Shown: positions 349-13,438, numbered from the stretch's first letter. The stretch: 64,000 bases of DNA from an uncultured Bacteroidota bacterium (GCA_963714855.1 CAVQPT010000009.1:31438-95437); one strand, 5' to 3'. Made by a program: numbers and translations. Notes: generated by a model not told the origin, from the sequence alone.

Positions 349-879
349 TCAGGACCCTCCCTTACCCAACACTCTGGCGATCGCGGTGATGGTGTTCCAA
401 TTGCGTGTGGTGACCGGAACCCCAAAGAGTCGGTCGAGTGTGCCCAGGTAGCCGATAGCCTTCATGTCGCGCCGGTATACGCCGAAGACGAACCGATTGT
501 CCCTCGCGAGGATCTTCAGAAACCACTTGCCGCTGGAAGGAAGGCTCATGGGCGTCGACGGCGCCGAGCGGGGGCGGTTGGACAGGATGCTCACGAAGCG
601 GACGATGCCGGGTCGCGCGGGCTGGTCCGCGAAGTGATCTTGAGACATCAGCCTGACAATCTCGCGGCCCTGGCAGATGATGATCTCGGCATCAAAGGGA
701 AGCCCGCGCACCAATTCGGCGCGCAGTTGCGCCCGGGTGACCGGCCGCCGGATCACAAAGGTGCCCGCCGCGCCGATGTTGACGGCGTCGAGATGCTTCA
801 GTTGTCCGGCCAGCGTCGTAGGTCGGAATGTCCTGTGACCGCCGACGTTGACCCCTCTCAGAAAAACCACGAGTGCCAT
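349..879 (-). CDS. DUF1697 domain protein
   Basis: Internal Met start MALVVFLRGVNVGGHRTF... is the typical DUF1697 N-terminus; the track ORF 349..1113 extends upstream from a GTG with no family similarity there. Confidence 0.7.
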   Translation of the reverse strand: MALVVFLRGVNVGGHRTFRPTTLAGQLKHLDAVNIGAAGTFVIRRPVTRAQLRAELVRGLPFDAEIIICQGREIVRLMSQDHFADQPARPGIVRFVSILSNRPRSAPSTPMSLPSSGKWFLKILARDNRFVFGVYRRDMKAIGYLGTLDRLFGVPVTTRNWNTITAIARVLGKGGS

Positions 880-951
880 GCGTCTCCTCTTGCTTGCGCC
901 GCTCGAGACTGGATCAACTCGGCCACCCGATAATTGATCCACCGTCCCGCG

Positions 952-1003
952 TGAGTGCCTAACGTCCAGCATCGCCGGCAGCGCACAGCGCCGTCCGTTA
1001 CAG
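952..1003 (-). other. short degenerate attC-like site (GCCTAAC ... GTTACAG) downstream of the frameshifted flavodoxin-like cassette gene
   Basis: RYYYAAC motif GCCTAAC at about 952-958; internal GC-rich dyad; TAA stop of the 998..1300 ORF lies inside the GTTAC end. Confidence 0.3.
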
Positions 1004-1690
1004 GCTGTTGTTACCTGGTTGTTCACCGGACCGTTCTGGGCTTTGCTGCGGTCGATTCCGCCGCTCAAGCCCGGAGGCTTTCCGGCCCGCTCTTTCGAAC
1101 TCCGGCATGGCACTCCTCTGCAGGCGCTCGGCTAGATCGAGACAGCGGTCGACCAGGGCGCGCGCACCATCATGCAGGTCTGTGCTGTGCTTGACCATCT
1201 CAACGTTGTGTTCCATGTCCTCCGCTGTCCAGCCGCGGCTGTGAGCAATGAACGGAAACTGGCGAAATTGCATGCCCAGTTCGCCAAAGAATAGCATCAT
1301 CTGTCCTGCGACGGCCTGAATGTTGTCCTGTCCCCCCTGTCACTATGACCCCGGCAACCTTGTTGTTCAGCATGACACGGTTCTTCAGCGTGATCTGGTT
1401 CTGCACCGTGTTCAGACGCTCCGCCATCTTGAAGTACAACGAACTTGCCGAACCCCAGCGGATGGGCGTCGAAACCAGAACGACGTCCGCCCAGAATACC
1501 AGGTTCTCATACACCGCGTGCATGCCGTCAGCCGGTTCCCTCTGTGAGATGCTGCACGGCCAGGTACAAGCCTGTGCACTCTTGGAGTAGTAACCTTCGC
1601 AGGCACACGGATATTCGCAAGGGCGACGCGGACCGTGCTCATTCCGGTACTCCGCTACGGCGTCGCGCCTTGACCAGGCAGATGCGTTTC
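998..1690 (-). pseudogene. flavodoxin-like fold / NADPH-dependent FMN reductase (iron-sulfur flavoprotein-like) gene, disrupted by frameshifts
   Basis: Fragments in two frames: ...HAVYENLVFWADVVLVSTPIRWGSASSLYFKMAERLN... (1200..1523) continuing as ...GELGMQF... (998..1300). The frame change falls at a C7 run near 1305-1315. The upstream in-frame region has a Cys-rich stretch but no start codon. Confidence 0.45.
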
Positions 1691-1723
1691 ATAATAGATG
1701 ACTTTCCTGCGGCCCCGGAGCAT

Positions 1724-2110
1724 TCATTGACCTGCGGGCGGCTGCCAAAGCTCGACCTTGTTTCCCTCCGGGTCGATAACCCAGGCGAACTTTCCGTACT
1801 CAGATTCGTCGATCTTGTCCAGGACGTTGCAGCCCTCGTCCTTGAGAATCTTGACCAGCGCGTGCACGTCCTCAACTCTGTAATTGACCATGAAACTTGC
1901 CGTGCCCGGTGCAAAGGAGTCGCCCTCTGCAGGTCCGATTGACCAGATAGTCGTGCCTCCCACCGCATTGCCTTCCCCGTCCGTCCATGTGAATGCGGCA
2001 CCACCCCATTCTTGGACATCGATTCCGAGGTGACGCTTGTACCATGCCCGTAGTCCCGCGGCATCTTTGGCTTTAAAGAAGATACCGCCAATACCAGTAA
2101 CTCGCCTCAT
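1724..2110 (-). CDS. VOC family protein (glyoxalase/bleomycin-resistance-like)
   Basis: 128-aa ORF with typical VOC signature (GIGGIFFKAKD..., ...WVIDPEGNKVELWQ); GGAGAG RBS upstream of the ATG. Confidence 0.85.
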   Translation of the reverse strand: MRRVTGIGGIFFKAKDAAGLRAWYKRHLGIDVQEWGGAAFTWTDGEGNAVGGTTIWSIGPAEGDSFAPGTASFMVNYRVEDVHALVKILKDEGCNVLDKIDESEYGKFAWVIDPEGNKVELWQPPAGQ

Positions 2111-2136
2111 CGTGCTCTCCTCTCTGTAGTTCCAGG

Positions 2137-2265
2137 GCCTAGCGCCTTGCGATTACCTGCGTCGCCGAAGCAAATCATCCTTCAGTGTGATACTGTGGAC
2201 GCGAGAATCCAGGAACTGATCATTTCCAGAGCTTCGGATGCCATCGGCTCCTTGCTAGTCAATTA
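2137..2265 (-). other. degenerate attC-like remnant downstream of the hydrolase cassette gene
   Basis: The plus-strand 5' end GGGCCTAGCGCCTTGCGATTACCTGCGTCGCCGAAGCAAA resembles the conserved end of the attC family (GCCTAACGGTCGCGCCTTACCTGCGCCGCGAAACGAA); the high-coordinate end is poorly conserved. Confidence 0.25.
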
Positions 2266-3291
2266 CTCGCCGGGCAGCCCAGTCCGGCATCTCTGGAAAA
2301 CGTGGTTCAGGTCGTCCAGTTCGGCCACCATGAAGGCACTATTACCTCCCTCGCGCAACGAGCTTTCAATGGCGACAAGGTGCTCTTTCGCAGGAATCTG
2401 TACATCTTTGCTGCCGTTGATCGCGAGAACAGGGCATTGCACCCGCGTCAGCATGTCCGCCGGATTATCGTCCATCGATTCGAGGACCTGCAGCGATCGC
2501 ATAAATGCGAGATATCCATCCACATTGTCCAGGTGAAAGAGGGTCCTGGATTCTGCACCCATGAAGCTCGCGATCTCTGCAAGGAGCCTTTTTGCTTTTT
2601 CCGTCTCTGAAGCCGACATCGTTTTCCTCGTGTAGAGTGGCCACATCTCATCGTACAACTGCCTGATGCGGACGACATCTCGTTCACCGAACCCCGACGC
2701 CCGTGCGATAGCGATGCTCGATGCGCACGCGAACTCCTTACCCCAGACCCCCGGCGCCGCCATCAACACAATGAATCCCACGTCGGAGGAACGCGTCGCC
2801 ATAGCGGGCACAATCAGCCCGCCCTGGCTGATACCGAGCGCGCCAATCCGCTTGGGGTCTATTGCCTCCTGTGCCTTGAGGAAGGCGATTCCTGCCAGCG
2901 CATCATCGACGAAGTTCTCAATGTCGTACGGCTCGTACTTTCCTCCCGATTGTCCACATCCACGTTTGTCATAACGGATCGTCGCCACGCCATGACGGCT
3001 CAGGTAGTCGGCGATTGTAAAGAACAGGCGATGCTTGCCAACCTGGACGTCACGGTCGTGTGGTCCGGAGCCTGCAACGAGAACAACCGCCGGGAAAGGT
3101 CCAGAACCATTGGGCAGAGTCAGAGTGCCCGCTGGCTGAATCCCATCAATGAAGTTCCGGAAGGTGATCGCTACTTCCTTGTAAGGGGAGCTGGCATCTT
3201 GCTCGGCACAGGACAAGGCCAGTGCACAGAAAGTGACTAAGAGAAGGGCAGTGGGATGTGTCTTCGGACGGAACACGGCCACCTCATCCAA
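2263..3291 (-). CDS. alpha/beta hydrolase lipoprotein (cassette-borne)
   Basis: 342-aa ORF with lipobox LALSC, GxSxG-type hydrolase core (GISQGG); track start is TTG at 3289-3291, only 3 nt from the GTCTAAC core, so the true start is uncertain (GTG at codon 4 or 6 possible). Confidence 0.8.
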   Translation of the reverse strand: MDEVAVFRPKTHPTALLLVTFCALALSCAEQDASSPYKEVAITFRNFIDGIQPAGTLTLPNGSGPFPAVVLVAGSGPHDRDVQVGKHRLFFTIADYLSRHGVATIRYDKRGCGQSGGKYEPYDIENFVDDALAGIAFLKAQEAIDPKRIGALGISQGGLIVPAMATRSSDVGFIVLMAAPGVWGKEFACASSIAIARASGFGERDVVRIRQLYDEMWPLYTRKTMSASETEKAKRLLAEIASFMGAESRTLFHLDNVDGYLAFMRSLQVLESMDDNPADMLTRVQCPVLAINGSKDVQIPAKEHLVAIESSLREGGNSAFMVAELDDLNHVFQRCRTGLPGE

Positions 3292-3294
3292 TCT

Positions 3295-3457
3295 GTCTAA
3301 CGGCTGCGGCTCACCTGCGCCGCGAAACGAATTGGGTCTTTTGAAAACCGCAACGAACCCAAAAAGCCACTGTCAACATCTCCGCGCACCGTGTACTTTT
3401 CCTACGGTCCTTTCCGCCTCCGCACCCACCACGCGGCGTCAGGTGCAACCGTTTGAT
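3295..3457 (-). other. attC recombination site, family A (belongs to the inverted brnTA cassette)
   Basis: Plus-strand GTCTAAC (3295-3301, RYYYAAC) ... CACCTGCGCCGCGAAACG ... CGCGGCGTCAGGTGCAACCGTTTGAT (to 3457); about 85% identical to the elements at 6093-6260 and 7107-7273; lies between two genes. Confidence 0.6.
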
Positions 3458-3467
3458 GGGGGGCATG

Positions 3468-3496
3468 TTGACATTGTATACTAAGCGCCTTACAGT
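3468..3496 (+). promoter_or_regulatory. putative sigma70-type promoter for brnTA (TTGACA-17-TACAGT), would give a nearly leaderless brnT mRNA
   Basis: TTGACA at 3468-3473, TACAGT at 3491-3496, brnT ATG at 3502. Confidence 0.3.
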
Positions 3497-3501
3497 GTCT
3501 T

Positions 3502-3780
3502 ATGGATATCACCTGGGATCCGCACAAGGAACGCAGGCTGCGCAAGGAGCGGGGAATTGAATTCCGCGGGGTCCCTGATTTGATCAGCGACCGTAAGTAT
3601 ATTGCCATCCTGCAGAATCCAAGTCGACCGTCTCAGTTTATCTTCATCCTTCCCTACCACGGCTACACCCATGTGGTACCATTTATCATAGGCAAAGATG
3701 AAACGATTGTGCTAAAGAGCGTATTTCCCAGTCGAAAGTTCCATCAACTCTATGGAAAGACTAATGAAGACGAAGCTTGA
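3502..3780 (+). CDS. brnT: BrnT family toxin (DUF497, RelE-like ribonuclease)
   Basis: MDITWDPHKERRLRKERGIEFRGVPDLIS... matches the BrnT/DUF497 N-terminal signature; overlaps the downstream antitoxin gene. Confidence 0.8.
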   Translation: MDITWDPHKERRLRKERGIEFRGVPDLISDRKYIAILQNPSRPSQFIFILPYHGYTHVVPFIIGKDETIVLKSVFPSRKFHQLYGKTNEDEA

Positions 3781-4018
3781 TGCCGCCGAACTGAGTATCG
3801 AACGCTCTGCTGGCTCCTATCGCCCCGTCTCGTCAAAGGACAGGAAGCACATTGAGGTCATTCTGACCCGCTCGCGCAAAAGCAGGAGCATCACTATTCG
3901 TATTTCTGAACCCACTCTGGCAGAGCTCAAGCAACGTGCTGAACGTGAGGGGCTACCCTATCGAGACCCTCGTCTCGAGCATTCTTCACAAGTATGTAAC
4001 CGACCGCCTCGTGGATGA
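3752..4018 (+). CDS. brnA: BrnA antitoxin (CopG/RHH-like), frameshifted near the 3' end; the conserved C-terminus ...TLVSSILHKYVTDRLVDEEA is encoded in the +1 frame up to about 4064
   Basis: ...ITIRISEPTLAELKQRAEREGLPY then in-frame junk RDPRLEHSSQVCNRPPRG*; the +1 frame from about 3963 reads ETLVSSILHKYVTDRLVDEEAVTKSLRFLRSAE*, which is the canonical BrnA tail. Confidence 0.7.
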   Translation: MERLMKTKLDAAELSIERSAGSYRPVSSKDRKHIEVILTRSRKSRSITIRISEPTLAELKQRAEREGLPYRDPRLEHSSQVCNRPPRG

Positions 4019-4099
4019 GGAGGCAGTCACCAAGTCTCTTCGTTTCCTTCGTTCAGCTGAGTAGTCCCGCGCGCGCTTGTCCACCGCATTACAGTCGTG

Positions 4100-4185
4100 C
4101 CCAATTGATCATGCCCACTCACGGCCGGTTTCAGCGGCGTTGCGGAGCGCAGCGAAGCAGCGACCGCTGCAACCCGTTGTTAGGT
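4100..4185 (-). other. attC-like site of the ADH cassette (divergent sequence type)
   Basis: GTTAGGT core at 4179-4185 overlapping the ADH TAA stop (ACCTAAC on the coding strand); imperfect dyad CAGCGGCGTTGCG...CGCAGCGACCGCTG; low-coordinate boundary not resolved. Confidence 0.35.
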
Positions 4186-5169
4186 TTTGTTACTATGTTC
4201 CACAGTTATTACTACATTTCCTTTCTTGTGCCCTTTTTCAACATAGCTATGGGCCTCGGCAATTCGTTCCAACGGATAGCGTCTATCCATGACCGATTTT
4301 ATCTTTCCCGCCTCAATAAGCCCTTTGAGCTCTTTGAGGAAGACTAGACGCTCTGGAACGGGTCGAAGGCCTGTGGCCGAAAATACGACTTTTTTGTTGC
4401 CAATTTTTGAAGTCCATAGCATTTGGCACATAATTGCAAACGTAGGGGCAGTAGAAAGATAGACACCTTTTTGCGTCAGCGAGCCTTTACAGCGTGAAAA
4501 TGAGCTCTTGCCTACCGTATCAAAAATGGCATCATAGGTCTGGCCGGTTTTGGTAAAATCCTCTTTAGTGTAATTAATTACCTTATCCGCACCAAGAGAT
4601 TTCACCAATTCTAGATTCGTGGTACTGCATACCCCGGTAACTTCCGCCCCAAAGTACTTGGCAAGCTGTACCGCAGAAGTGCCTACCGATCCAGAAGCGC
4701 CATTGATAAGAACTTTTTGCCCGCTCTGAATATTTGCCTTGTCTCTAAGGAAATTCCATGCTGTTAATGCCCCATCACAGACGGGGGCGGCTTCCTCATA
4801 GGTCATATTCGCCGGTTTTATTGCCACCACTCCTTCTTCGGGCAGACATATGTACTCGGCATAAGCTCCAAAATTAATCTCGGTAGATCCAAACACTTGG
4901 TCGCCTTCTTTAAATAGCTTTGCATCTTTGCCTACTGCTTCAATCTCACCGGCTAGCTCAACCCCAAGTATAGGGTTCTTTGGTCTTATGAGACCAGTGA
5001 AAAATCTTGAAATAAATGGGTCACCCTTTCGATTAGCACAGTCACTTGGTGTTGCTGTTGTCGCATATATTTTTATCAGTACTTCGTTGTTCCTGACAGT
5101 AGGTTTTTCTACCTCTTTGAACTGAAGAACATGAGGTGATCCGTATTCTGTGTATACAATCGCTTTCAG
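4180..5169 (-). CDS. zinc-binding MDR-family alcohol dehydrogenase / quinone oxidoreductase, apparent CTG start
   Basis: Track ORF 4180..4896 starts at an internal GTG. The same frame continues upstream as (L)[37 protein letters not shown]... (GroES-like N-domain) with no ATG/GTG/TTG. An AGGAGA Shine-Dalgarno lies 6 nt upstream of CTG at 5167-5169. Low GC (~42%). Confidence 0.75.
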
Positions 5170-5247
5170 GAGTTATCTCCTAATCTGGTTTTGTTTGTTG
5201 TCCATTATTGGAATAGTATACAACAATACATCCTGCAAGCCTGCAAA

Positions 5248-5374
5248 ACCTAAAGGTCGCGCCTTCCCTCGCCGCGAAACGACCGCATAATTGCAAGCGA
5301 CCAACATCTATAACAGACTTTCGTGACGACCCCGATGCCCCAGACGCGGCGTCAGGTACGGGCGCTGGTTAGGT
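5248..5374 (-). other. attC recombination site, family B
   Basis: ACCTAAA...CCTCGCCGCGAAACGACCGCATAATTGCAAGCGACCAACATCTATAACAGA...CCCCAGACGCGGCGTCAGGTACGGGCGCTGGTTAGGT; GTTAGGT core 5368-5374 contains the TAA stop (5369-5371) of the upstream membrane-protein gene; about 90% identical to the 8015-8153 element. Confidence 0.6.
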
Positions 5375-5986
5375 TGCCACCTTTGCTGCCCCCTGCGGAA
5401 ATCCCTTGAACCTCCAAATGACTACGATAATGGCATATATGGAAAATGCAATTGAGAGTACGAGGAAGGTCCATGTAACGAAACCACCTACAGTGAGCGC
5501 AATGTGAAATAGATCACCTCTAAAGCCTGTAGCAAATCCAATGGTTTCACATACTAAGTCAAAAGTCGGTCTCAAACACAGCAACATGAAGAGAAATCCA
5601 ATTAGAAAAGCGTTACGAAAGAGTTTCCGTTGAAGAACGTAAACGCCAATTGCAATACTCACCAGATCGAGAAGGTAAGGTGAGATAGTCATAATCAACT
5701 GGCTCCATTCGTTGGTGACGCCTACTGCTTTGATCCACGCCCCAGCAGTCTCTCCAGCCCAAAACCTGGGAATGAGTTTGACTTCGACAGTCTGAGCACC
5801 AACAAGGTATGCGCCAAGCAGATGGCTCAATTCATGTATAGGCGCGTAGACGAAATACCACAGTATCGGAATGGTAGACATGCACGCCACCATCGTTTTG
5901 GGTTTCCAAGTTCCCCTTAGATAGAGCACAAGAAGGGGAGCAACGACGGTGAAGAGTATTTCGAAAGTGATCAGTAGATGGCTCAT
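5369..5986 (-). CDS. integral membrane protein (hypothetical, cassette-borne)
   Basis: 205-aa ORF with about 6 predicted TM segments; low GC; stop codon embedded in the attC core. Confidence 0.6.
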   Translation of the reverse strand: MSHLLITFEILFTVVAPLLVLYLRGTWKPKTMVACMSTIPILWYFVYAPIHELSHLLGAYLVGAQTVEVKLIPRFWAGETAGAWIKAVGVTNEWSQLIMTISPYLLDLVSIAIGVYVLQRKLFRNAFLIGFLFMLLCLRPTFDLVCETIGFATGFRGDLFHIALTVGGFVTWTFLVLSIAFSIYAIIVVIWRFKGFPQGAAKVAT

Positions 5987-6092
5987 GACATTTTACGGAC
6001 TCCCTTGAGCCTATGTCGTCGATTGGGCAAGAGCCACCAAAGTTACCAAGAATGCACATCTCATGATTGGGGACTCCTCCTTTTTCGCGGCA

Positions 6093-6260
6093 ACCTAACG
6101 GCCCCTCTTCACCTGCGGCGTGAAACGAATTGGGCCTTTTGAAAACCCTCAACGAGTACCCAAGAAGCACCTTGTAACACCACCCCGTCCCTGCACTGTG
6201 CCTCCGGGCCTTTCCACCTCCGCTCCTGCTCGCGGCGTCAAGTGCAGCCGCTGGTTAGCG
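6093..6260 (-). other. attC recombination site, family A (orphan; no intact ORF between it and the next attC remnant)
   Basis: ACCTAAC (6093-6099) ... CACCTGCGGCGTGAAACGAATTGGGCCTTTTGAAAACC ... CGCGGCGTCAAGTGCAGCCGCTGGTTAGCG (GTTAGCG 6254-6260). Confidence 0.55.
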
Positions 6261-6399
6261 TCTCCACCACACCTTCGGCGCGGTTCTTTCCGATACTCGG
6301 CTCATTTTGCACAGGAATCAAGTCGTTCATTGTCAACAGGTTACAATGAGCTGCTTGGGAGGCAGCAACCCGCCGTGAGCCGGTTGGGGAACAACATTC

Positions 6400-6477
6400 T
6401 TGTCCACACCTCCATTTACCGCCGCGAAACTGCAGAAGAGTGCAGGGCCTGACCCCGCCGACCGATTCATTCTCTCA
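6400..6477 (-). other. partial/degenerate attC remnant immediately downstream of the 6475..7071 gene
   Basis: CACCTCCATTTACCGCCGCGAAACTGCAG resembles the conserved CACCTGCGCCGCGAAACG arm; the other arm is missing. Confidence 0.25.
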
Positions 6478-7071
6478 TGCGGATGTGGGGGCTGAATCTG
6501 AGGGATCGATCGCAGGCGTCCTTCGCAACCCCGCCAGCTGTCGGGCTGCTGAAGATATTCCCGCAATCGCAACGCCCAGCATGAACATGGAAGCCGAGCA
6601 TATCGCCATCACGATCAGGAAGATAGTCAGAGCAACATAGCGACCCATCTGAATGATGTACCCGGTGCGCAGATGGAGATAGAGCTTGCCGTGAAGTCCG
6701 CGACGAGCAGCTCTATAGCCCAGGAGATTGCCCAAATGAGTTGTGATCACGATGAGGTATAATCCCCAGACGTAACCGATCAACAGCACACGAAACTCCT
6801 CCGGGATCCACACTAGTCCCAATGCCACAACCACACTAAGAATTGCCGCCGGAACAATATGCCTCGGATCGACGATTCGCCGGGCCAACACCGCCTTCTG
6901 ATACAGAGGGTTTCCTTCAATGGTGTTGATCGGATAACTTTCATAGTGCTCGGAATAGTGCAGTTGACGCTCGCGTTCCTGGCCGATGGTAAGCAACCAA
7001 TCGCTCCACATCAAAAAGAATGTGACGACGCCTGTTACCCAGGGTTGGCCTGCAAACCATTCAATCATCAC
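6475..7071 (-). CDS. integral membrane protein (hypothetical, cassette-borne)
   Basis: 198-aa ORF with multiple TM segments; GAGGTG RBS 5 nt upstream of ATG at 7066-7068 (track start is GTG at 7069-7071). Confidence 0.6.
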   Translation of the reverse strand: MMIEWFAGQPWVTGVVTFFLMWSDWLLTIGQERERQLHYSEHYESYPINTIEGNPLYQKAVLARRIVDPRHIVPAAILSVVVALGLVWIPEEFRVLLIGYVWGLYLIVITTHLGNLLGYRAARRGLHGKLYLHLRTGYIIQMGRYVALTIFLIVMAICSASMFMLGVAIAGISSAARQLAGLRRTPAIDPSDSAPTSA

Positions 7072-7106
7072 GGCACCTCATTAATGGGGTGAGTCAGTGC
7101 ATTGCT

Positions 7107-7273
7107 GCCTAACGGCTGCGGCTCACCTGCGCCGCGAAACGAATTGTGTCTTGTGAAAACCCGAAAAGGGTACCGCAAAAAACCACTGTCAATACGTCCG
7201 CGCATCGTGTACTGTGCCTAAGGTCCATTCAGCCTCTGCACCCGCCTCGCGGAGTCAGGTGCAGACGTTTTTT
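7107..7273 (-). other. attC recombination site, family A
   Basis: GCCTAAC (7107-7113) GGCTGCGGCTCACCTGCGCCGCGAAACGAATTGTG ... CGCGGAGTCAGGTGCAGACGTTTTTTT (to about 7273); the MepA-like gene stops at 7283. Confidence 0.6.
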
Positions 7274-7282
7274 TTTGGCCGC

Positions 7283-7999
7283 TCAGTTATCCATCGTAAA
7301 GTCTATATGATAATGTTCGTCGTGCCGAACCCACGCGGGCTTTGTTGAGAACTTCATGAGACTCGGTAGGTTCTGCCCCCCCTTGGATGCAATGAGATGT
7401 TTCTGCAAAGTGGCGTCGAATATCACGACCTTGATGCCAACGCCGTGCTTCAACGCACTGTCATGAATAGCTTTGAGGTGAGCAGCCATCGCTTCAAAGT
7501 CAATAGAATAGGTCCGAGTCTTTCCCGCTGAATCGAATTCCACCGAATATCCGAACTCGTTGAAAATGTTTGTAGGAAGCACGGTTGGTGTCCCGTCTGC
7601 AGTGTTCACCGGAACCATGAAATCCACGGAAAGTCCATTTTGATGCGTCTTGTGAGGCCAGAATTTTCCTCCGTGAGGCCAACCCGTCTCGCCGTAGACG
7701 AACCTCCGGTGAGGACGAGTTTCCGCAAGCCGGGAGTATGCCTCCAGGATGGTAGCCTTTACCTTGTCGTGAACGCACGTTCGGCCGATGAGACTGCCCA
7801 ACCGAGAATATGTTGTGAAGTTAGGCCCGGACGACGGTAGCCTCTTGGCATTCTCAATTGAGCCGGTCGATGTTGTCCCCCGACTTATACTTGGAGCATC
7901 TGATTCGAATGCGATCAACACATAGTTCCCCCAGCAAACGATCGCAGTAAGTGCCACACTGAGGGCAACCAGTCCGAGAATAACTCGCTTCATCCTCAA
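7283..7999 (-). CDS. penicillin-insensitive murein endopeptidase (MepA / peptidase M74, LAS-type)-like protein
   Basis: 238-aa ORF with signal peptide; motifs ...HQNGLSVDF... and ...WVRHDEHYHIDF... resemble the MepA metal-binding region; track start is TTG, ATG at codon 3. Confidence 0.6.
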   Translation of the reverse strand: MRMKRVILGLVALSVALTAIVCWGNYVLIAFESDAPSISRGTTSTGSIENAKRLPSSGPNFTTYSRLGSLIGRTCVHDKVKATILEAYSRLAETRPHRRFVYGETGWPHGGKFWPHKTHQNGLSVDFMVPVNTADGTPTVLPTNIFNEFGYSVEFDSAGKTRTYSIDFEAMAAHLKAIHDSALKHGVGIKVVIFDATLQKHLIASKGGQNLPSLMKFSTKPAWVRHDEHYHIDFTMDN

Positions 8000-8014
8000 G
8001 AGTTCACATTCCTC

Positions 8015-8153
8015 AGCCTAGAGCGGCCTAACGGTCGCGCCTTACCTGCGCCGCGAAACGAATGCTTAATTGCAAGCAACCAACATCTATAACAGATTAC
8101 GGTGACGACCCCGATGCCCCAGACGCGGCGTCAGGTACAGGCGCTGGTTAGCG
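8015..8153 (-). other. attC recombination site, family B
   Basis: GCCTAAC (8015-8021) GGTCGCGCCTTACCTGCGCCGCGAAACGAATGCTTAATTGCAAGCAACCAACATCTATAACAGA ... CGCGGCGTCAGGTACAGGCGCTGGTTAGCG (GTTAGCG 8147-8153). Confidence 0.6.
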
Positions 8154-8173
8154 CAGCTAAGCCTGTCGTCTCA

Positions 8174-8689
8174 TCAATGATTGGGGTTCAGTGCGTTTGG
8201 CTCGCGACCTATAGCCGCAGCTGTGTCCGGTGGCATGATGAATAAGTAGTCATGGCCCAACGCTCCACCGAAAACTGCGCCGCAAAATCCACCCAACGTG
8301 ATGCTTCCCATCAGAAGGAATCCCTTCCCCATTCTTGCGTCTCCCCCCGATCCCATTCCGGTGCCAGCGACAAGACCGAAGGCAGCGCCACCGAGCCCTC
8401 CCAGCATCATCCCCTCCATCGCGCCACCGCCATGATGTGTCACTCGTACCGATGCGACGTCTCGAGAACAAACAGAAAGCTGACTGTCGCTTCGTGGATC
8501 CGTGAAGCGCGTTGTATCCTCACCAAACATCAAATGCTCGGCTTCAAGGGCTACACCTGAACGAAGCATCAGCACCGCAGAACTTTCCTGAACTTTGTGA
8601 TTCGCGTCCATTGGCGACCGCAAAGGAACTGTCGTCGTGCAACCTGATGCAAAGATGCACACGAAGACCACGAGCACAATTTGTCTCAT
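8174..8689 (-). CDS. glycine-zipper lipoprotein (hypothetical)
   Basis: 171-aa ORF; lipobox ASGC; Gly-rich membrane-associating segment GLGGAAFGLVAGTGMGSGG; GAGG RBS 5 nt upstream of the ATG. Confidence 0.55.
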   Translation of the reverse strand: MRQIVLVVFVCIFASGCTTTVPLRSPMDANHKVQESSAVLMLRSGVALEAEHLMFGEDTTRFTDPRSDSQLSVCSRDVASVRVTHHGGGAMEGMMLGGLGGAAFGLVAGTGMGSGGDARMGKGFLLMGSITLGGFCGAVFGGALGHDYLFIMPPDTAAAIGREPNALNPNH

Positions 8690-8711
8690 GCCGGCCTCAT
8701 CAATCTGCCAC

Positions 8712-9215
8712 CTATTCCAACAGTACGCCCGAGAGTTTCAGCGACAAGTACACTCTCGAATCGCCCCTCTTGTCGATTGCGCCGTTCGCCAGTTGAATCC
8801 TGTAGGGAAGCGGCGCGATCGCTTCGATCACAGCACATGCAGGAGGCATGCTTGAAGAATATGCCCACCAGAATGTCCCGAGATAGATACGATCGTTCCC
8901 GACGGTTACCACGAAGGGGACACCGCGTGTTGTTCCATGTGCCAATAGAAACTGCTCATATAGTGCACGCGCACTCTGCATAAGTGTAAAGGCATGCGTT
9001 GACCAGACATAGGAGTTCAGGTCATGGACGTCCAAGAGTGCTGAGTCGGCCAAGGCCAAGCTCCCGATCGGTTGCGAGAATGCATCGTTTGCGGTTAGTG
9101 TCGAGTCCCTTAGAAGATAGATTGCGAAAGAGCCTTCCGGGAATTCCTGATCTGACGTTGGGAAAGGGCACGCGAACAAAAGCACCGAGCATGAGATGAC
9201 GACGATGTATTTCAT
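8712..9215 (-). CDS. lipoprotein (hypothetical), first gene of the attI-proximal two-gene cassette
   Basis: Internal ATG (9213-9215) gives MKYIVVISCSVLLFACPFP... (lipobox) with a GGTGGAG RBS; the longer track ORF 8712..9425 would overlap the intI start and the attI core. Confidence 0.5.
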   Translation of the reverse strand: MKYIVVISCSVLLFACPFPTSDQEFPEGSFAIYLLRDSTLTANDAFSQPIGSLALADSALLDVHDLNSYVWSTHAFTLMQSARALYEQFLLAHGTTRGVPFVVTVGNDRIYLGTFWWAYSSSMPPACAVIEAIAPLPYRIQLANGAIDKRGDSRVYLSLKLSGVLLE

Positions 9216-9247
9216 GGCAATCTCCACCGAGTTCAATCGAGGCTGCC

Positions 9248-9412
9248 GCCTAACATTTAGTAGGTTATAAATTGAGATCGAAAGTGCTGGGGTTGTTGTG
9301 GTATATGTTTGCGTGTAGTCCGCTTGAGGGGCGGGAAATACTGCGCGCTGACAACGATGTGCCCCACACGAGAGGGATGGGCTGCGAGTAATTCCAAGAA
9401 TCCACCGCGACA
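9248..9412 (-). promoter_or_regulatory. putative attI site and divergent Pc/PintI promoter region
   Basis: GTTAGGC core (plus-strand gcctaac 9248-9254) about 33 nt upstream of the first cassette gene's start; AT-rich stretch between the first cassette and the intI ATG at 9413. Confidence 0.35.
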
Positions 9413-10134
9413 ATGCCACCACCAAAACTCCTCGACCAAGTCCGTACTACCGCCGCCCTCCGACACCTCAGCCCCCGAACTATAGAAGCATATGTCCAGT
9501 GGATCAAATGATTCGTTCTCTTTCATGACAAACGACACCCACTCGAAATGGGCGCACCAGAAATCCATACGTTCCTCTCGCACCTCGCACAAGCCCTCAA
9601 CGTCTCGGCGTCGACCCAAAATCAAGCCCTCAATGCGCTTGCATTCCTCTACCACCAAGTCCTCAAACGTACGCTTGGCGAACTCGGAAACCTCCCCCGC
9701 ACCAAGCGGCAAAAACGCCTCCCCGTTGTCTTTTCCCCGGCTGAGGCGCGACAGGTTCTCTCCTGCCTCACCGGCGTCGAAAACCTCATGGCATCCCTCC
9801 CTACGGGTCAGGCCTCCGCCTCACAGAATGCATCTCGCTTCGCGTAAAAGACATCGATCTCGACAAACACCTGATCCTTGTCAGACAGGCTAAGGGAGAA
9901 AAGGATCGAGTCACAATGCTCCCCCACAGTATCTTGCCAAGCCTCTTCCGTCAGCTCGAAACCGTCAGGGAAATCCACCACCGCGATATGCTCGATCAAT
10001 ACGCCGGCGCTACATTCCGGGAATCTCTCGAACGAAAGTACCCCAATGGACCACGAGAGCTCGCCTGGCAATACCTGTTCCCCGTCCTCACCAAAGGTGG
10101 CCTGGCTGTCCGAAGCCCGCTGGATGAACCGTGA
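9413..10134 (+). pseudogene. intI: integron integrase intI remnant: in-frame TGA, frameshift, and internal deletion of the catalytic region
   Basis: MPPPKLLDQVRTTAALRHLSPRTIEAYVQWIK*FVLFHDKRHPLEMGAPEIHTFLSHLAQALNVSASTQNQALNALAFLYHQVLK...RLPVVFSPAEARQVLSCLTGVENLMAS / frameshift / PPYGSGLRLTECISLRVKDIDLDKHLILVRQAKGEKDRVTMLPHSILPSLFRQLETVREIHHRDMLDQYAGATFRESLERKYPNGPRELAWQYLFPV-LTKGGLAVRSPLDEP*. This aligns with IntI1, including the IntI-specific ALERKYP segment. About 85 aa carrying box II and the catalytic Tyr are missing. Confidence 0.8.
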
Positions 10135-10659: not shown

Positions 10660-12540
10660 ATGATGCTAAGAAGTGTCTCGCGGATCACAGCGCCACTGTA
10701 TGTTCTGTGTCTGTTGTTCCCGCTTTCCGTTGTGGCAGAAGACAATAATCAAGGAGCCATGAGAATGGATTCGAAGCAGAAGGTGATCTTTACCTGTCCT
10801 ACCAACAGTATGGAGGAGTTCCGTCGATTGGCCAGGCAGGCGGCCGAATTGGGTGCCACCCACGTGGCGATCAGCGACCTGCCGAAAAGCCGATGGCAGT
10901 GGGAACTGGACCTGAACGATCCGTATCCCACCTGGGGGATGCTCGTCACATCGATATTCAAAGTGGTGGTGCCCGAGGAATTGAAGCCATTCATTCCTGC
11001 CGACTATGCGAAGAAGAATCTGCAGATCGTAAAGGAACGATGCGTCATACTGAAAGAGTTGGGATTGAAAGCAGCGTTCTTTGGCAAAGAGCCGGCGTGG
11101 CTGCCGGAAGCGGTGTATCAAGCTCATCCGGAATGGCGCGGTCCACGCTGCGAGCATCCGCGACGCGCACGGCATACCTATTATGCACCCTGTATCGACC
11201 GGCCGGAAGTGCTGGCCATGTATCGCAAGGCGGTGGCGGAGTTGTGTCGCCAGGCACCCATCGAGGTTTTTTCCTTGTTGACTAACGATTCCGGTGGCGG
11301 CATCTGCTGGAGCGTCAGCCTCTATCCCGGCCAGAACGGACCGTCATGGTGCGAGAAACGATCCTATGCCGACCGTGTCGTCGGATTCATATCCACCATA
11401 CAAGACGGCGCCAGGGATGCTGGCCTGCAAGCCGAGGTTTCCATGAACTATGGCTCCGGCTATATCTCGCAGGCCGAAGTGGCATCGGTGATCCCGCTGC
11501 TCAAATCCGGGCAGGCACTCAATTTCAAGACCCGGGACGAATCCGTGCCAACACGTACCATCGGCTACAATTTTTACATCAGCGGTGTCGGTCCCGTCCT
11601 GGGGATCCCCCAAGTCTTCCGGGTCGCGGAGCAGTTGCAGGACGCCTCGAGCGATCAGACGACAAACCGGACGTTCATGATGGATGAGGCCAACGCGCCG
11701 GAGTACTTCGAACTGGTGCGTCAGTTCCGCAACAACCCGGCCACAACCATGATCGGTCGTATGCAGAACATTTTGCGCACTGCGGAACATTTCGCCGGTC
11801 CCGAAGGTGCACATCACCTGATGCAGGCATGGGACAAGATTGGCCGGGCAGCGTTGATCGTACACAATCTATCCGGCGATCCGCTCATGCTCGTCGGCAC
11901 AGTCAACCAGCGCTGGATCACCCGACCACTGGTACCGTTCCCCATGGAGCTGACGCCGGAAGAGAAGGACTATTACCGCAAGTACCAGTTCCAGTCCAAC
12001 TCCGAGGAAGAAGCAGCGGACCTGATGAATCTGCAGGGATTCGAGGTGATCAACGGATTCTCCGGAACGATGATCGCTGGCACCCAGTTCACGCAGGCGA
12101 TCGCACTGCTGCAGTCGGCCATTGACGATCTCGGCAAGGTAACGAAGGCACCGGACGATCAATGGGCAGTGTTGCAGAACAGAGTGCGGACGTTGGTCTG
12201 CTTCTATCGCAACGTGCTTTACACCAGCCAGTACCAGGACATCCTGGACCGGTCGGACTATTCAAAGCCACCTGTCGAGCAGAACATCTATCCCATGGAT
12301 GGTGATCAGCTCCTGCGGGAGATTCAGATCGTTACCCGGCACGACATTGACAACACCAATGAACTGATCCGGTTACTGGAGACAAGCAGGGTGCCTCTGG
12401 TGCAAACGGCGCCGACCAAAGAGGAAGAGGAGATATTTACCCTGGGTCCGGATCTCATTGATCAATTGAAAAAGAAGGTGGCGATCACACTGAAGCATCA
12501 ACTGGAGGTGCATCGGTTGTATCACCGCCGACAGGGGTAG
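10660..12540 (+). CDS. secreted hypothetical protein (signal peptide)
   Basis: 639-aa track ORF; AAGGAAGAG RBS before ATGATG at 10660; N-terminal signal peptide MMLRSVSRITAPLYVLCLLFPLSVVA. Confidence 0.6.
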   Translation: MMLRSVSRITAPLYVLCLLFPLSVVAEDNNQGAMRMDSKQKVIFTCPTNSMEEFRRLARQAAELGATHVAISDLPKSRWQWELDLNDPYPTWGMLVTSIFKVVVPEELKPFIPADYAKKNLQIVKERCVILKELGLKAAFFGKEPAWLPEAVYQAHPEWRGPRCEHPRRARHTYYAPCIDRPEVLAMYRKAVAELCRQAPIEVFSLLTNDSGGGICWSVSLYPGQNGPSWCEKRSYADRVVGFISTIQDGARDAGLQAEVSMNYGSGYISQAEVASVIPLLKSGQALNFKTRDESVPTRTIGYNFYISGVGPVLGIPQVFRVAEQLQDASSDQTTNRTFMMDEANAPEYFELVRQFRNNPATTMIGRMQNILRTAEHFAGPEGAHHLMQAWDKIGRAALIVHNLSGDPLMLVGTVNQRWITRPLVPFPMELTPEEKDYYRKYQFQSNSEEEAADLMNLQGFEVINGFSGTMIAGTQFTQAIALLQSAIDDLGKVTKAPDDQWAVLQNRVRTLVCFYRNVLYTSQYQDILDRSDYSKPPVEQNIYPMDGDQLLREIQIVTRHDIDNTNELIRLLETSRVPLVQTAPTKEEEEIFTLGPDLIDQLKKKVAITLKHQLEVHRLYHRRQG

Positions 12541-12839: not shown

Positions 12840-13015
12840 ATCCTACTGTTCTCTCCCGCTGAAACCGGCCGGGATGATACTGCGGGGTATCCTTGAAACA
12901 ACAATCCAAGACGATGAATATACCAAAAAAGTCAAAATCTTGCAACCTGACAACAAGAAAGGGAACGGCACCACGGTTGTCGTCCATGGTGCCGTCGTTT
13001 GCTATCAATACCGTG

Positions 13016-13089
13016 TCGGGGCGACAGGATTTGAACCTGCGACTTCTTGCTCCCAAAGCAAGCGCTCTGCCGGGCTGAGCTACGCCCCG
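13016..13089 (-). tRNA. tRNA-Pro (anticodon TGG)
   Basis: Reverse complement CGGGGCGTAGCTCAGCCCGGCAGAGCGCTTGCTTTGGGAGCAAGAAGTCGCAGGTTCAAATCCTGTCGCCCCGA. Confidence 0.85.
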
Positions 13090-13438
13090 AAACTTACTTC
13101 CGACACCCTCTCTACATGCTACAACTCTTGAACCCAGCAGTATTTCTGGACCTGTAACTTTGGCGCCAAAGGCGCCACGCTCTGCCGGGTCCGTTCCCGC
13201 AAAAGGCGGGAACGCGACTCTCGTCTCCGCCACAGGCGGAGACGGAGCTGAGCTACGCCCCGAAACTTACTTCCGACACCCTCTCTACATGCTACAACTC
13301 TTGAACCCAGCAGTATTTCTGGACCTGTAACTTTGGCGCCAAAGGCGCCACGCTCTGCCGGGTCCGTTCCCGCAAAAGGCGGGAACGCGACTCTCGTCTC
13401 CGCCACAGGCGGAGACGGAGCTGAGCTACGCCCTGAAA
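13075..13438 (-). repeat. tandem direct repeat, 173-bp period, 2 full copies plus a partial third; each copy begins with the 5' 15 nt of tRNA-Pro
   Basis: Copies 13075-13247 and 13248-13420 are near-identical, and 13421-13438 repeats the start; this explains the duplicated ORF fragments 12802..13233 and 13119..13406. Confidence 0.8.

Follow-up and report, generated by a model that had tools for sequence, protein, structure and literature searches.

The question raised by this locus is whether a run of small genes beside a broken recombinase gene is an integron and, if so, what state it is in. The genes lie near one end of a 64,000-nucleotide stretch of DNA from an uncultured Bacteroidota bacterium (GCA_963714855.1 CAVQPT010000009.1:31438-95437). 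We call this whole stretch the window, and all coordinates below are positions within it unless a contig is named. An earlier note, made from the sequence alone, had described the region from 3295 to 10134 as a degenerate chromosomal integron in which a decayed integrase gene (intI) is divergent from an array of cassettes. That description holds up: we found an intI pseudogene, an attI junction, and six attC sites detected by a covariance model, and we conclude with high confidence that the locus is a sedentary chromosomal integron of an Ignavibacteriota genome, in decay. It has every structural feature of an integron that we tested for, and the word 'degenerate' applies because the functional requirement, an intact catalytic integrase, is lacking. 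The locus is an integron by descent, not by activity.

The plus-strand fragments at 9413-10134, when joined across one stop codon and one frameshift, give a product of 240 aa. This product matches the NCBIfam integron integrase model TIGR02249 with an E-value of 1.9e-76 (257 bits), over profile positions 1-221 of 315, so that approximately 70% of the profile survives. The models for XerC, XerD and XerA reach only 55-84 bits on the same product, in which Pfam recognizes the beginning of the catalytic domain, preceded by an N-terminal SAM-like domain. The solved structure that the product matches best is that of the Vibrio cholerae integron integrase VchIntIA (2a3v, E = 3e-47). The alignment to VchIntIA spans residues 8-225 with no large gaps, passing through the IntI-specific segment ...LERKYPNGPRELAWQYLFP, with the conserved Trp of ...AWQYLFP inside the aligned insert. 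The integrase assignment and the IntI-specific insertion reported earlier are therefore borne out by profile search and structure-based alignment, and a reading of the fragments as a XerC/XerD dimer recombinase was rejected on the same scores and on the presence of the insert.

To locate the lesions in this gene we aligned its nucleotide sequence with three intact orthologues of 963 nt, from contigs L001, L002 and L027. There are three lesions: an in-frame TGA codon at 9509-9511; the loss of one nucleotide near 9800/9801, within the C-rich run CCCTCC-C, which shifts the frame; and a clean in-frame deletion of 240 nt (80 codons) at approximately 10085/10086. The last of these removes residues ~225-304 of the intact protein (ASRR...RHH...HTFRHS...GH...MIYTH), which make up the second half of the catalytic pocket: the RHH and HxxR motifs and the nucleophilic tyrosine, that is, the segment carrying the catalytic His, Arg and Tyr residues. 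What had looked like a truncation of the gene at 10134 is instead its natural end, because the original stop codon and the final 16 codons are retained and the protein there is 100% identical to the L001 integrase (P0001); the loss is internal. The window intI thus lacks the full catalytic Arg-His-Arg-Tyr set of a functional integrase, and these lesions would be expected to abolish its activity. We found no further IntI-like sequence within the 64-kb window. Nucleotide identity between the window gene and the orthologues is 70-73%, compared to 76-80% among the orthologues themselves. The window gene is therefore only modestly more divergent than the orthologues are from each other, and so its inactivation may be recent.

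The proteins nearest to the reconstructed IntI are intact, 320 aa long, and 69-73% identical to it. The named ones are labelled as integron integrases, with two of them coming from metagenome-assembled genomes (MAGs) of Ignavibacteria or Ignavibacteriota, and the intact relatives score 430-439 bits on TIGR02249, for which the cut-off is 265. The IntI proteins and the syntenic contigs thus place the host in the Fibrobacteres-Chlorobi-Bacteroidetes (FCB) group, as the earlier note had supposed. In the window, a conserved gene of 591 aa (10765-12540, plus strand), which lies outside the integron and serves as a synteny anchor, flanks intI. The same gene lies beside an intact intI in L001, L002 and L027, where nucleotide identity to the window is 79.5-88%; in L001 the gene is 92% identical at the protein level and 88% at the DNA level. 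The locus is therefore in an orthologous position to intact integrons. Contig L001 (471 kb) shows what such an integron looks like: its intact intI has the junction GCCGCCTAACAT approximately 150 nt upstream, followed by 11 co-oriented attC copies, each 124-125 nt from core to core, that continue to the end of the contig. Because intI keeps the same neighbor in all four loci and the attC family is homogeneous (92% mean column identity across two genomes), the element is an ancestral, sedentary chromosomal integron of the Ignavibacteriota lineage. We also saw that L001 has an extra gene of 817 aa between intI and the 591-aa gene (L001 9339-11792) that is absent from the window and from L002, so that the non-array side of the locus is rearranged as well.

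On the other side of intI the window retains a recognizable attI. The junction between attI and the first cassette lies at 9246-9257 on the minus strand, reading GCCGCCTAACAT on the plus strand and GTTAGGC on the cassette strand. Its core (GCCTAAC, plus strand) is at 9248-9254, approximately 32 nt before the ATG at 9215 of the first cassette gene, where a GTTAGGC core had been noted before, and approximately 160 nt from the start of intI. In both loci whose sequence extends to the attI side, L001 and L027, the same junction is conserved at an equal distance from intI, so that an attI sharing the GTT crossover core stands beside intI. Beyond it the cassette array is divergent from intI, and its attC sites are co-oriented. 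A single sigma-70-like promoter match lies inside intI on the cassette strand (9507-9479, minus strand; TTGATC, a 17-nt spacer, TATAGT) and faces the cassettes, a position that recalls the Pc promoter of class 1 integrons; the scan does not cover promoters of the Bacteroidota type, and a single match exceeds expectation only slightly. The cassettes may be transcribed from a promoter near or within intI.

The attC sites of the array were found with a covariance model built from five clear window elements and 11 copies from one relative. The five window elements had been defined by repeat finding and alignment, and they share their arms and have two kinds of centre. They score 77-152 bits (E from 1e-21 to 2e-44), and the model also detects a sixth site, at 4115-4186, with 23.7 bits (E = 1e-5), which is only 72 nt long and divergent in sequence, with the same architecture. 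When the same model was run on positions 11000-64000 of the window it found no matches, and the arm motifs, too, occur nowhere else in the window. An Rfam scan of the window at gathering thresholds returned three tRNAs only, and Rfam contains no attC family.

Written on the plus strand of the window, the consensus of the sites is 5'-CCTAAC / GGTC / GCGCCT-TACCTG-CGCCGCG / centre / CGCGGCG-T-CAGGTA-C-AGGCGC / TG / GTTAGG-3'. In this consensus the AAC triplet falls within an R box of 6 bp, the spacer is unpaired and asymmetric (4 nt + 2 nt), and the stem has 19 bp. Two single bases, T and C, bulge out of the stem, and they lie on the plus-strand 3' arm opposite the AAC triplet. The bulges are at positions 16 and 23 from the R'' end, and this spacing is also seen in the most divergent sites: C16 and A23 in the site at 4115-4186, and C16 and T23 in a probable site at 956-1017. 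The arms co-vary. In an alignment of 16 copies, 94.7% of cells are paired, compared to 28-43% when the partners are slid by 1-3 columns. In an alignment of 150 copies from several genomes, which was fitted to the model and includes some opposite-strand matches of the same sites, 98.2% are paired and 10 pairs have changed on both sides (74 cells), a result that none of 500 shuffles reached. There are two compensatory arm variants, GCGCCT-TACCTG/CAGGTA-C-AGGCGC and GCGGCT-CACCTG/CAGGTG-C-AGCCGC, and both occur in the window and in its relatives. The sites are therefore imperfect palindromes with the R' (RYYYAAC) and R'' (GTTRRRY) cores, L box, spacer and extrahelical bases of attC, including the paired R''/R' hairpin on which the earlier note had staked its claim; several copies are damaged.

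Folding of single sites gave a mixed result. The site at 8025-8154 (E6; we number the sites E1 to E6 toward intI) folds as one long hairpin (-31.4 kcal/mol, z = -3.6). For E1, E4 and E5, minimum free energy folding of the single element yielded no significant hairpin (z = +0.2, +1.2 and -0.45, respectively), because their long terminal regions and damaged arms favor alternative folds, and we therefore judged their arms by alignment and by the covariance model. The polarity of the sites follows from the bulges. The recombinogenic bottom strand of an attC site is the one that has RYYYAAC in R' and its extrahelical bases on the opposite arm, near L'' (PMC5027507). By this definition the plus strand of the window is the bottom strand and the cassettes are read on the minus strand, away from intI, in agreement with the strand of the ORFs (open reading frames) and the position of intI.

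A further property marks the boundaries of cassettes. Each attC site in an array is a hybrid, because integron recombination cuts inside the R' core, and so the bases just outside the R'' core of one site should pair with those just outside the R' core of the next site toward intI. Among relatives (17 arrays) we found complementarity at 5 of 5 nt in 91% of 90 adjacent pairs, compared to 11% when a site's own two flanks were matched and 6% between sites that are not adjacent. Of the six testable junctions in the window, five have 6-7 nt of complementarity: 3462 to 4115, 4186 to 5247, 5375 to 6092, ~6359 to 7106, and 7278 to 8025. The cassettes of the window are thus discrete modules joined by hybrid attC sites, as expected of mobile cassettes. 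The same test resolved the end of the cassette at 6475-7071. The nearby site at 6092-6261 (E4) was rejected as its attC, because the boundary signature there is 0 of 5 and because homology with L044, L105 and L106 ends near 6353-6359. This cassette ends instead at a decayed core near 6353-6359, which reads TTGGGAGG in place of GGTTAGG, and not at 6261; the same cassette has an intact GTTAGG in L044 and L106.

Palindromic repeats at gene ends need not be attC sites. They could be a dispersed intergenic element, of the repetitive extragenic palindrome (REP) or miniature inverted-repeat transposable element (MITE) kind, that lies by chance beside a tyrosine-recombinase fragment. The copies are indeed imperfect palindromes at gene ends, and the covariance model also matches the opposite strand of the same sites, more weakly. 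Their distribution is not that of a dispersed element, however. The other 53 kb of the window contains no copies, and neither do the non-array sides of L001 and L002; in the window and L001 they occur only beside intI, and elsewhere only in arrays that run in one direction within any locus, with spacings of 550-900 bp. In three genomes they are placed identically with respect to intI and attI, and 91% of adjacent pairs have the hybrid-boundary signature. Since the copies are restricted to co-oriented arrays the repeat is attC, and we regard the chance of a REP/MITE-like element as negligible. With this, each of the three tests that the earlier note had named as able to refute it has come out in its favor.

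We searched for the family more widely by a scan of GTDB, with one genome per species and an 18-nt arm pattern. Most matches to this pattern were rejected as single chance matches in GC-rich Proteobacteria (Variovorax, Ramlibacter). We separated family members from chance matches by an arm-motif regular-expression scan and tblastn searches with IntI, followed by the covariance model. True members occur only in MAGs labelled Ignavibacteria, Ignavibacteriota, Bacteroidota or Bacteroidetes, in co-oriented arrays of 11 to more than 100 copies. For example, contigs L016-L112, from JAUQWO01 ('Bacteroidota bacterium BIN5') and JAUQWQ01 ('Ignavibacteria bacterium BIN7'), carry the family in co-oriented arrays. 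BIN5 has more than 100 attC copies on approximately 25 short contigs, with intI and the conserved flanking gene on L027, and its arrays are of superintegron scale, in an uncultured FCB-group bacterium. Four BIN5 copies on L047 (2521-2696, 3347-3507, 4095-4255 and 4988-5163) contain a nested hairpin of 28 nt, GGTCGAAGATCCCGCCGTCTTTTGGCGG, which sits in the 3' (L'') arm of the stem and interrupts the stretch between the two extrahelical bases.

Compared to the sites of the active relative L001, which score 135-156 bits, those of the window are mostly eroded, with model scores of 152, 127, 99, 84, 77 and 24 bits. The site nearest to intI, E6 (130 nt, minus strand like all the others listed here), is essentially intact at 151.8 bits, like copies in the active relative, and its plus strand is the recombinogenic bottom strand. 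E5 (7106-7278, 173 nt) belongs to a subfamily with a long variable terminal structure (VTS), and its R'' core (7267-7276) has been lost to poly-T, with GTTAGG changed to GTTTTTTTTTGG. Next to it is E4b (~6318-6359, with an approximate 5' limit), what is left of the 3' (R''/L'') arm of a further attC, with the decayed core near 6353-6359 mentioned above. Only its homology to intact sites in L044 and L106, together with the boundary signature that links it to E5, makes this remnant recognizable. The 5' arm of E4 (170 nt, long-VTS subfamily) has several stem mismatches. In E3 (5247-5375, 129 nt) the crossover C of R' is mutated at 5252 (CCTAAA), and the R'' core holds the stop codon of the ORF at 5369-5986. 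E2 (4115-4186) has a geometry of 6 bp, C, 6 bp, A, 6 bp, and its R'' holds the stop codon of an alcohol dehydrogenase gene. Finally, E1 (3294-3462, 169 nt, long-VTS subfamily) has an R'' core that has decayed at 3455-3462 (GTTTGATGG). Damage to R'' cores or stems therefore affects four of the seven recognizable sites (E1, E4, E4b and E5), and these eroded cores and stems, together with one remnant, point to decay beyond intI itself. Of the element lengths of 130-170 nt given in the earlier note, two (129-130 nt) and three (169-173 nt) fit, and the 72-nt site does not.

These observations fit an account that begins with an active ancestor, of the kind seen in the relatives L001 and BIN5. In it, a 320-aa IntI tyrosine recombinase would fold the bottom strand of attC into a hairpin. 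The R box of this hairpin contains the AAC triplet at which cleavage occurs; a short spacer, unpaired, sets it apart from a long stem whose extrahelical bases are 16 and 23 nt away from the R'' end. According to the integron model (PMC5027507), the ancestral IntI would have cleaved between the A and C of AAC in R' on this folded strand, and strand exchange with attI or with another attC would then have led to insertion, excision and reordering of promoterless cassettes. Cassettes would have been inserted next to attI in the orientation in which they are expressed, to be read divergently from intI. In the window the array is probably frozen and drifting, since the 240-nt deletion removes the nucleophile, along with the rest of the catalytic segment, and a nonsense codon and a frameshift are present too. 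Without recombination in cis nothing would maintain the attC sites, and their decay may thus be explained by lost selection.

Several points weigh against this reading. The junction from E6 to attI obeys the boundary rule only when two gaps of 1 nt are permitted. The attC call depends on a covariance model that was itself built from the window sites and their relatives, and the assignment is one of structure and sequence. Our account of decay is qualitative, and the inactivation of intI might be recent. Two frameshifts could in principle be assembly errors, and the sequence examined amounts to 64 kb of the genome. The last two points lead to alternatives in which the integron is not dying at all.

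In one of them the intI defects are assembly or sequencing errors, and the integron is intact and active. The 1-nt deletion in intI does fall in a C-rich run, and similar errors could account for the frameshifts in a BrnA-like and an FMN-reductase-like cassette gene. On the other hand, basecalling errors do not typically take the form of a TGA substitution or of a precise in-frame deletion of 240 nt, and the attC cores are mutated as well. In the remaining 50 kb of the window, long ORFs without interruptions follow one another, and so the defects are unlikely to be assembly noise; we consider this alternative very improbable. Somewhat less remote, though still unlikely, is that the array is alive because another IntI, intact and encoded on a mobile element or at a different place in the genome, excises and inserts cassettes in trans via the best-preserved sites (E6, E3 and E2). 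E6 scores as well as sites in the active relative, and approximately one-fifth of IntI-encoding genomes carry more than one intI (PMC9024848). Against this, the window contains no second IntI-like sequence, four of the seven recognizable sites are damaged, E3 lacks the crossover C, and several cassette genes are damaged too. Of similarly low probability, in our judgment, is a joint reading in which the array is shuffled in trans and the long terminal region of the sites (60-110 nt), which is conserved in sequence, has a function beyond the hairpin, such as binding a lineage-specific accessory or host factor or acting as a regulatory RNA or terminator. If that were true, the family would be a mechanistically distinct class of attC and not a phylogenetic variant. 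We therefore retain the reading of a sedentary integron in decay.

The cassettes carry a variety of genes, and some of them are damaged. The earlier note placed all the small genes on the strand opposite to intI, each followed by its own repeat element. The cassette ORFs described here are indeed on the minus strand except for one pair of genes, and the first ORF of the array has no element of its own. Cassette 1 (8174-9215) contains two lipoprotein-like ORFs (8712-9215 and 8174-8689) without a Pfam match and with no attC between them, so that the first shares a cassette with the second. These ORFs are separated by 22 nt (8690-8711), consistent with either a genuine two-gene cassette or a cleanly deleted attC. 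Cassette 2 (7283-7999) encodes an M74-like murein endopeptidase. Cassettes 3 (6475-7071) and 4 (5369-5986) each encode a membrane protein, and cassette 5 (4180-5157) encodes a zinc-type alcohol dehydrogenase whose ATG start codon has become CTG. As had been pointed out from the sequence, the stop codons of the cassette 4 and cassette 5 ORFs (5369-5986 and 4180-4896) lie within attC cores (GTTAGG at 5368 and 4179). Cassette 6 (3502-4064) is inverted: a BrnT-like toxin gene (3502-3780) and a BrnA/CopG-like antitoxin gene that is frameshifted near 3957 are on the plus strand. The Pfam matches of this BrnT/BrnA-like pair, at 18 and 21 bits, are below the curated cut-offs. Inverted toxin-antitoxin cassettes are known in arrays of the Vibrio superintegron type. 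The damage to cassette genes thus comprises the dehydrogenase start, the antitoxin frame and the frame of an FMN-reductase-like gene further along the array.

Beyond E1 the array probably continues down to the start of the window. Four minus-strand genes in the interval 349-3291 are probable distal cassettes, separated only by weak or possible attC remnants: an alpha/beta hydrolase (2263-3291), a glyoxalase/VOC protein (1724-2110), the frameshifted FMN-reductase-like gene (998-1642), and a DUF1697 gene (349-879). The site at 956-1017, 62 nt long, is probably a short attC whose bulges, C and T, are at the positions of the family; its model score is borderline (15.7 bits, E = 0.0025), and it overlaps the stop of the FMN-reductase-like gene. 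A possible decayed attC remnant after the hydrolase gene, at 2136-2262, has a 5' arm that is 65% like the family; the covariance model did not detect it even at E-values up to 10, and so its standing as a site is no more than possible. An attC-like hairpin at 225-334 (ATTCAAC ... GTTGGGC), between the DUF1697 gene and the next small ORF, is also a possible site, seen by folding only. All three candidates are on the minus strand.

The base composition of the array is uneven. GC content is 45-49% over positions 4200-6000, which hold the alcohol dehydrogenase cassette and the neighboring membrane-protein cassette, compared to 55-60% in adjacent cassettes and flanks, and this drop fits cassettes of foreign origin. 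Separately, the DNA of the other membrane-protein cassette, cassette 3 (window 6349-7144), is 94-97% identical to DNA in three other MAGs (L088 1-619, L105 2673-3414 and L106 869-1653), and two of these MAGs carry different labels (Ignavibacteriota and 'Bacteroidetes'). Where the chromosomal flank can be compared, which is in L001, L002 and L027 and not in the three MAGs that share the cassette, its identity is only 79.5-88%. The excess of cassette identity over flank identity suggests either recent exchange of the cassette or strong conservation. Outside the integron, the window has a perfect tandem duplication of 173 nt at 13074-13438 (copies at 13074-13246 and 13247-13419, and a partial third copy at 13420-13438). 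The repeated unit starts inside the 5' end of a tRNA-Pro gene (13015-13089, minus strand), beside tRNA-Arg and tRNA-Glu genes, and the duplication could be a scar of integration or duplication or an assembly artefact.

How does this locus compare to known systems? The V. cholerae superintegron, with its integrase VchIntIA and its V. cholerae repeats (VCRs), is likewise sedentary and chromosomal, with a large co-oriented array and a homogeneous family of long attC sites. VCR2 is 133 bp long, compared to 125-134 nt for sites here, and has three bulged bases (G16, T20 and T24; PMC5027507) compared to the two here (C16 and T23). For this reason the suggestion that attC sites of 130 nt or more are unusual can be kept only in part: the ~170-nt variant is long, whereas ~130 nt is simply the size of a Vibrio VCR (133 bp, PMC5027507). 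The host here is an Ignavibacteriota bacterium and not one of the Gammaproteobacteria, the sites combine a longer continuous stem with a shorter unpaired spacer (4 nt + 2 nt), and the window differs from the superintegron in that its integrase is a pseudogene and its array is short and eroding. The attC site of aadA7, from a class 1 mobile integron, also has its extrahelical bases at positions 16 and 23 from the R'' end (labelled G16 and T23; PMC5027507). It has the same R' RYYYAAC and R'' GTTRRRY cores as the sites here, and its first bulged base is a G, not a C. The aadA7 site is ~60 nt long with a terminal loop of 3 nt, whereas the terminal structures here range from 13 to ~110 nt. The numbering 16 and 23 is one that we take to match the aadA7 sequence.

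In its decay, the locus resembles degenerate integrons and CALIN elements (clusters of attC sites without an integrase), in which the array is likewise kept while intI is lost to stop codons, frameshifts or deletions, and the position is fixed across relatives. Xanthomonas integrons with an inactivated intI are an example of such degenerate integrons. It differs from them in that the intI remnant is adjacent and approximately 75% complete, and in that intact orthologues at the same locus are available for comparison. The presentation of the locus as an integron outside its usual proteobacterial context was overstated, since complete integrons have been reported in Ignavibacteriae and Chlorobi (PMC9024848), and the host is therefore not new. 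Those IntegronFinder surveys cover the same kind of element in the same phylum-level hosts (PMC9024848). In the literature library that we searched they give counts only, and we found no paper there describing this attC family, this locus or its decay.

The locus leaves the current understanding of how integrons work unchanged, and as an example of a known system it is well preserved but otherwise ordinary. Its value is as a well-documented case of integron death outside Proteobacteria. The intact orthologues at the same locus permit a base-by-base account of what decays after IntI is lost: R'' cores, stems, start codons and an antitoxin. In the attC family, the extrahelical bases are as far from the cleavage site (positions 16 and 23) as they are in class 1 attC sites, although sequence, length and host are very different. 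The relatives point to superintegron-scale arrays in uncultured Ignavibacteria/Bacteroidota MAGs. The comparison also defines a lineage-specific attC family, CCTAAC-GGyC-GCGsCT-yACCTG-CGCCGCG ... CGCGGCG-T-CAGGTr-C-AGsCGC-TG-GTTAGG, which could serve to assign environmental cassettes to Ignavibacteriota.

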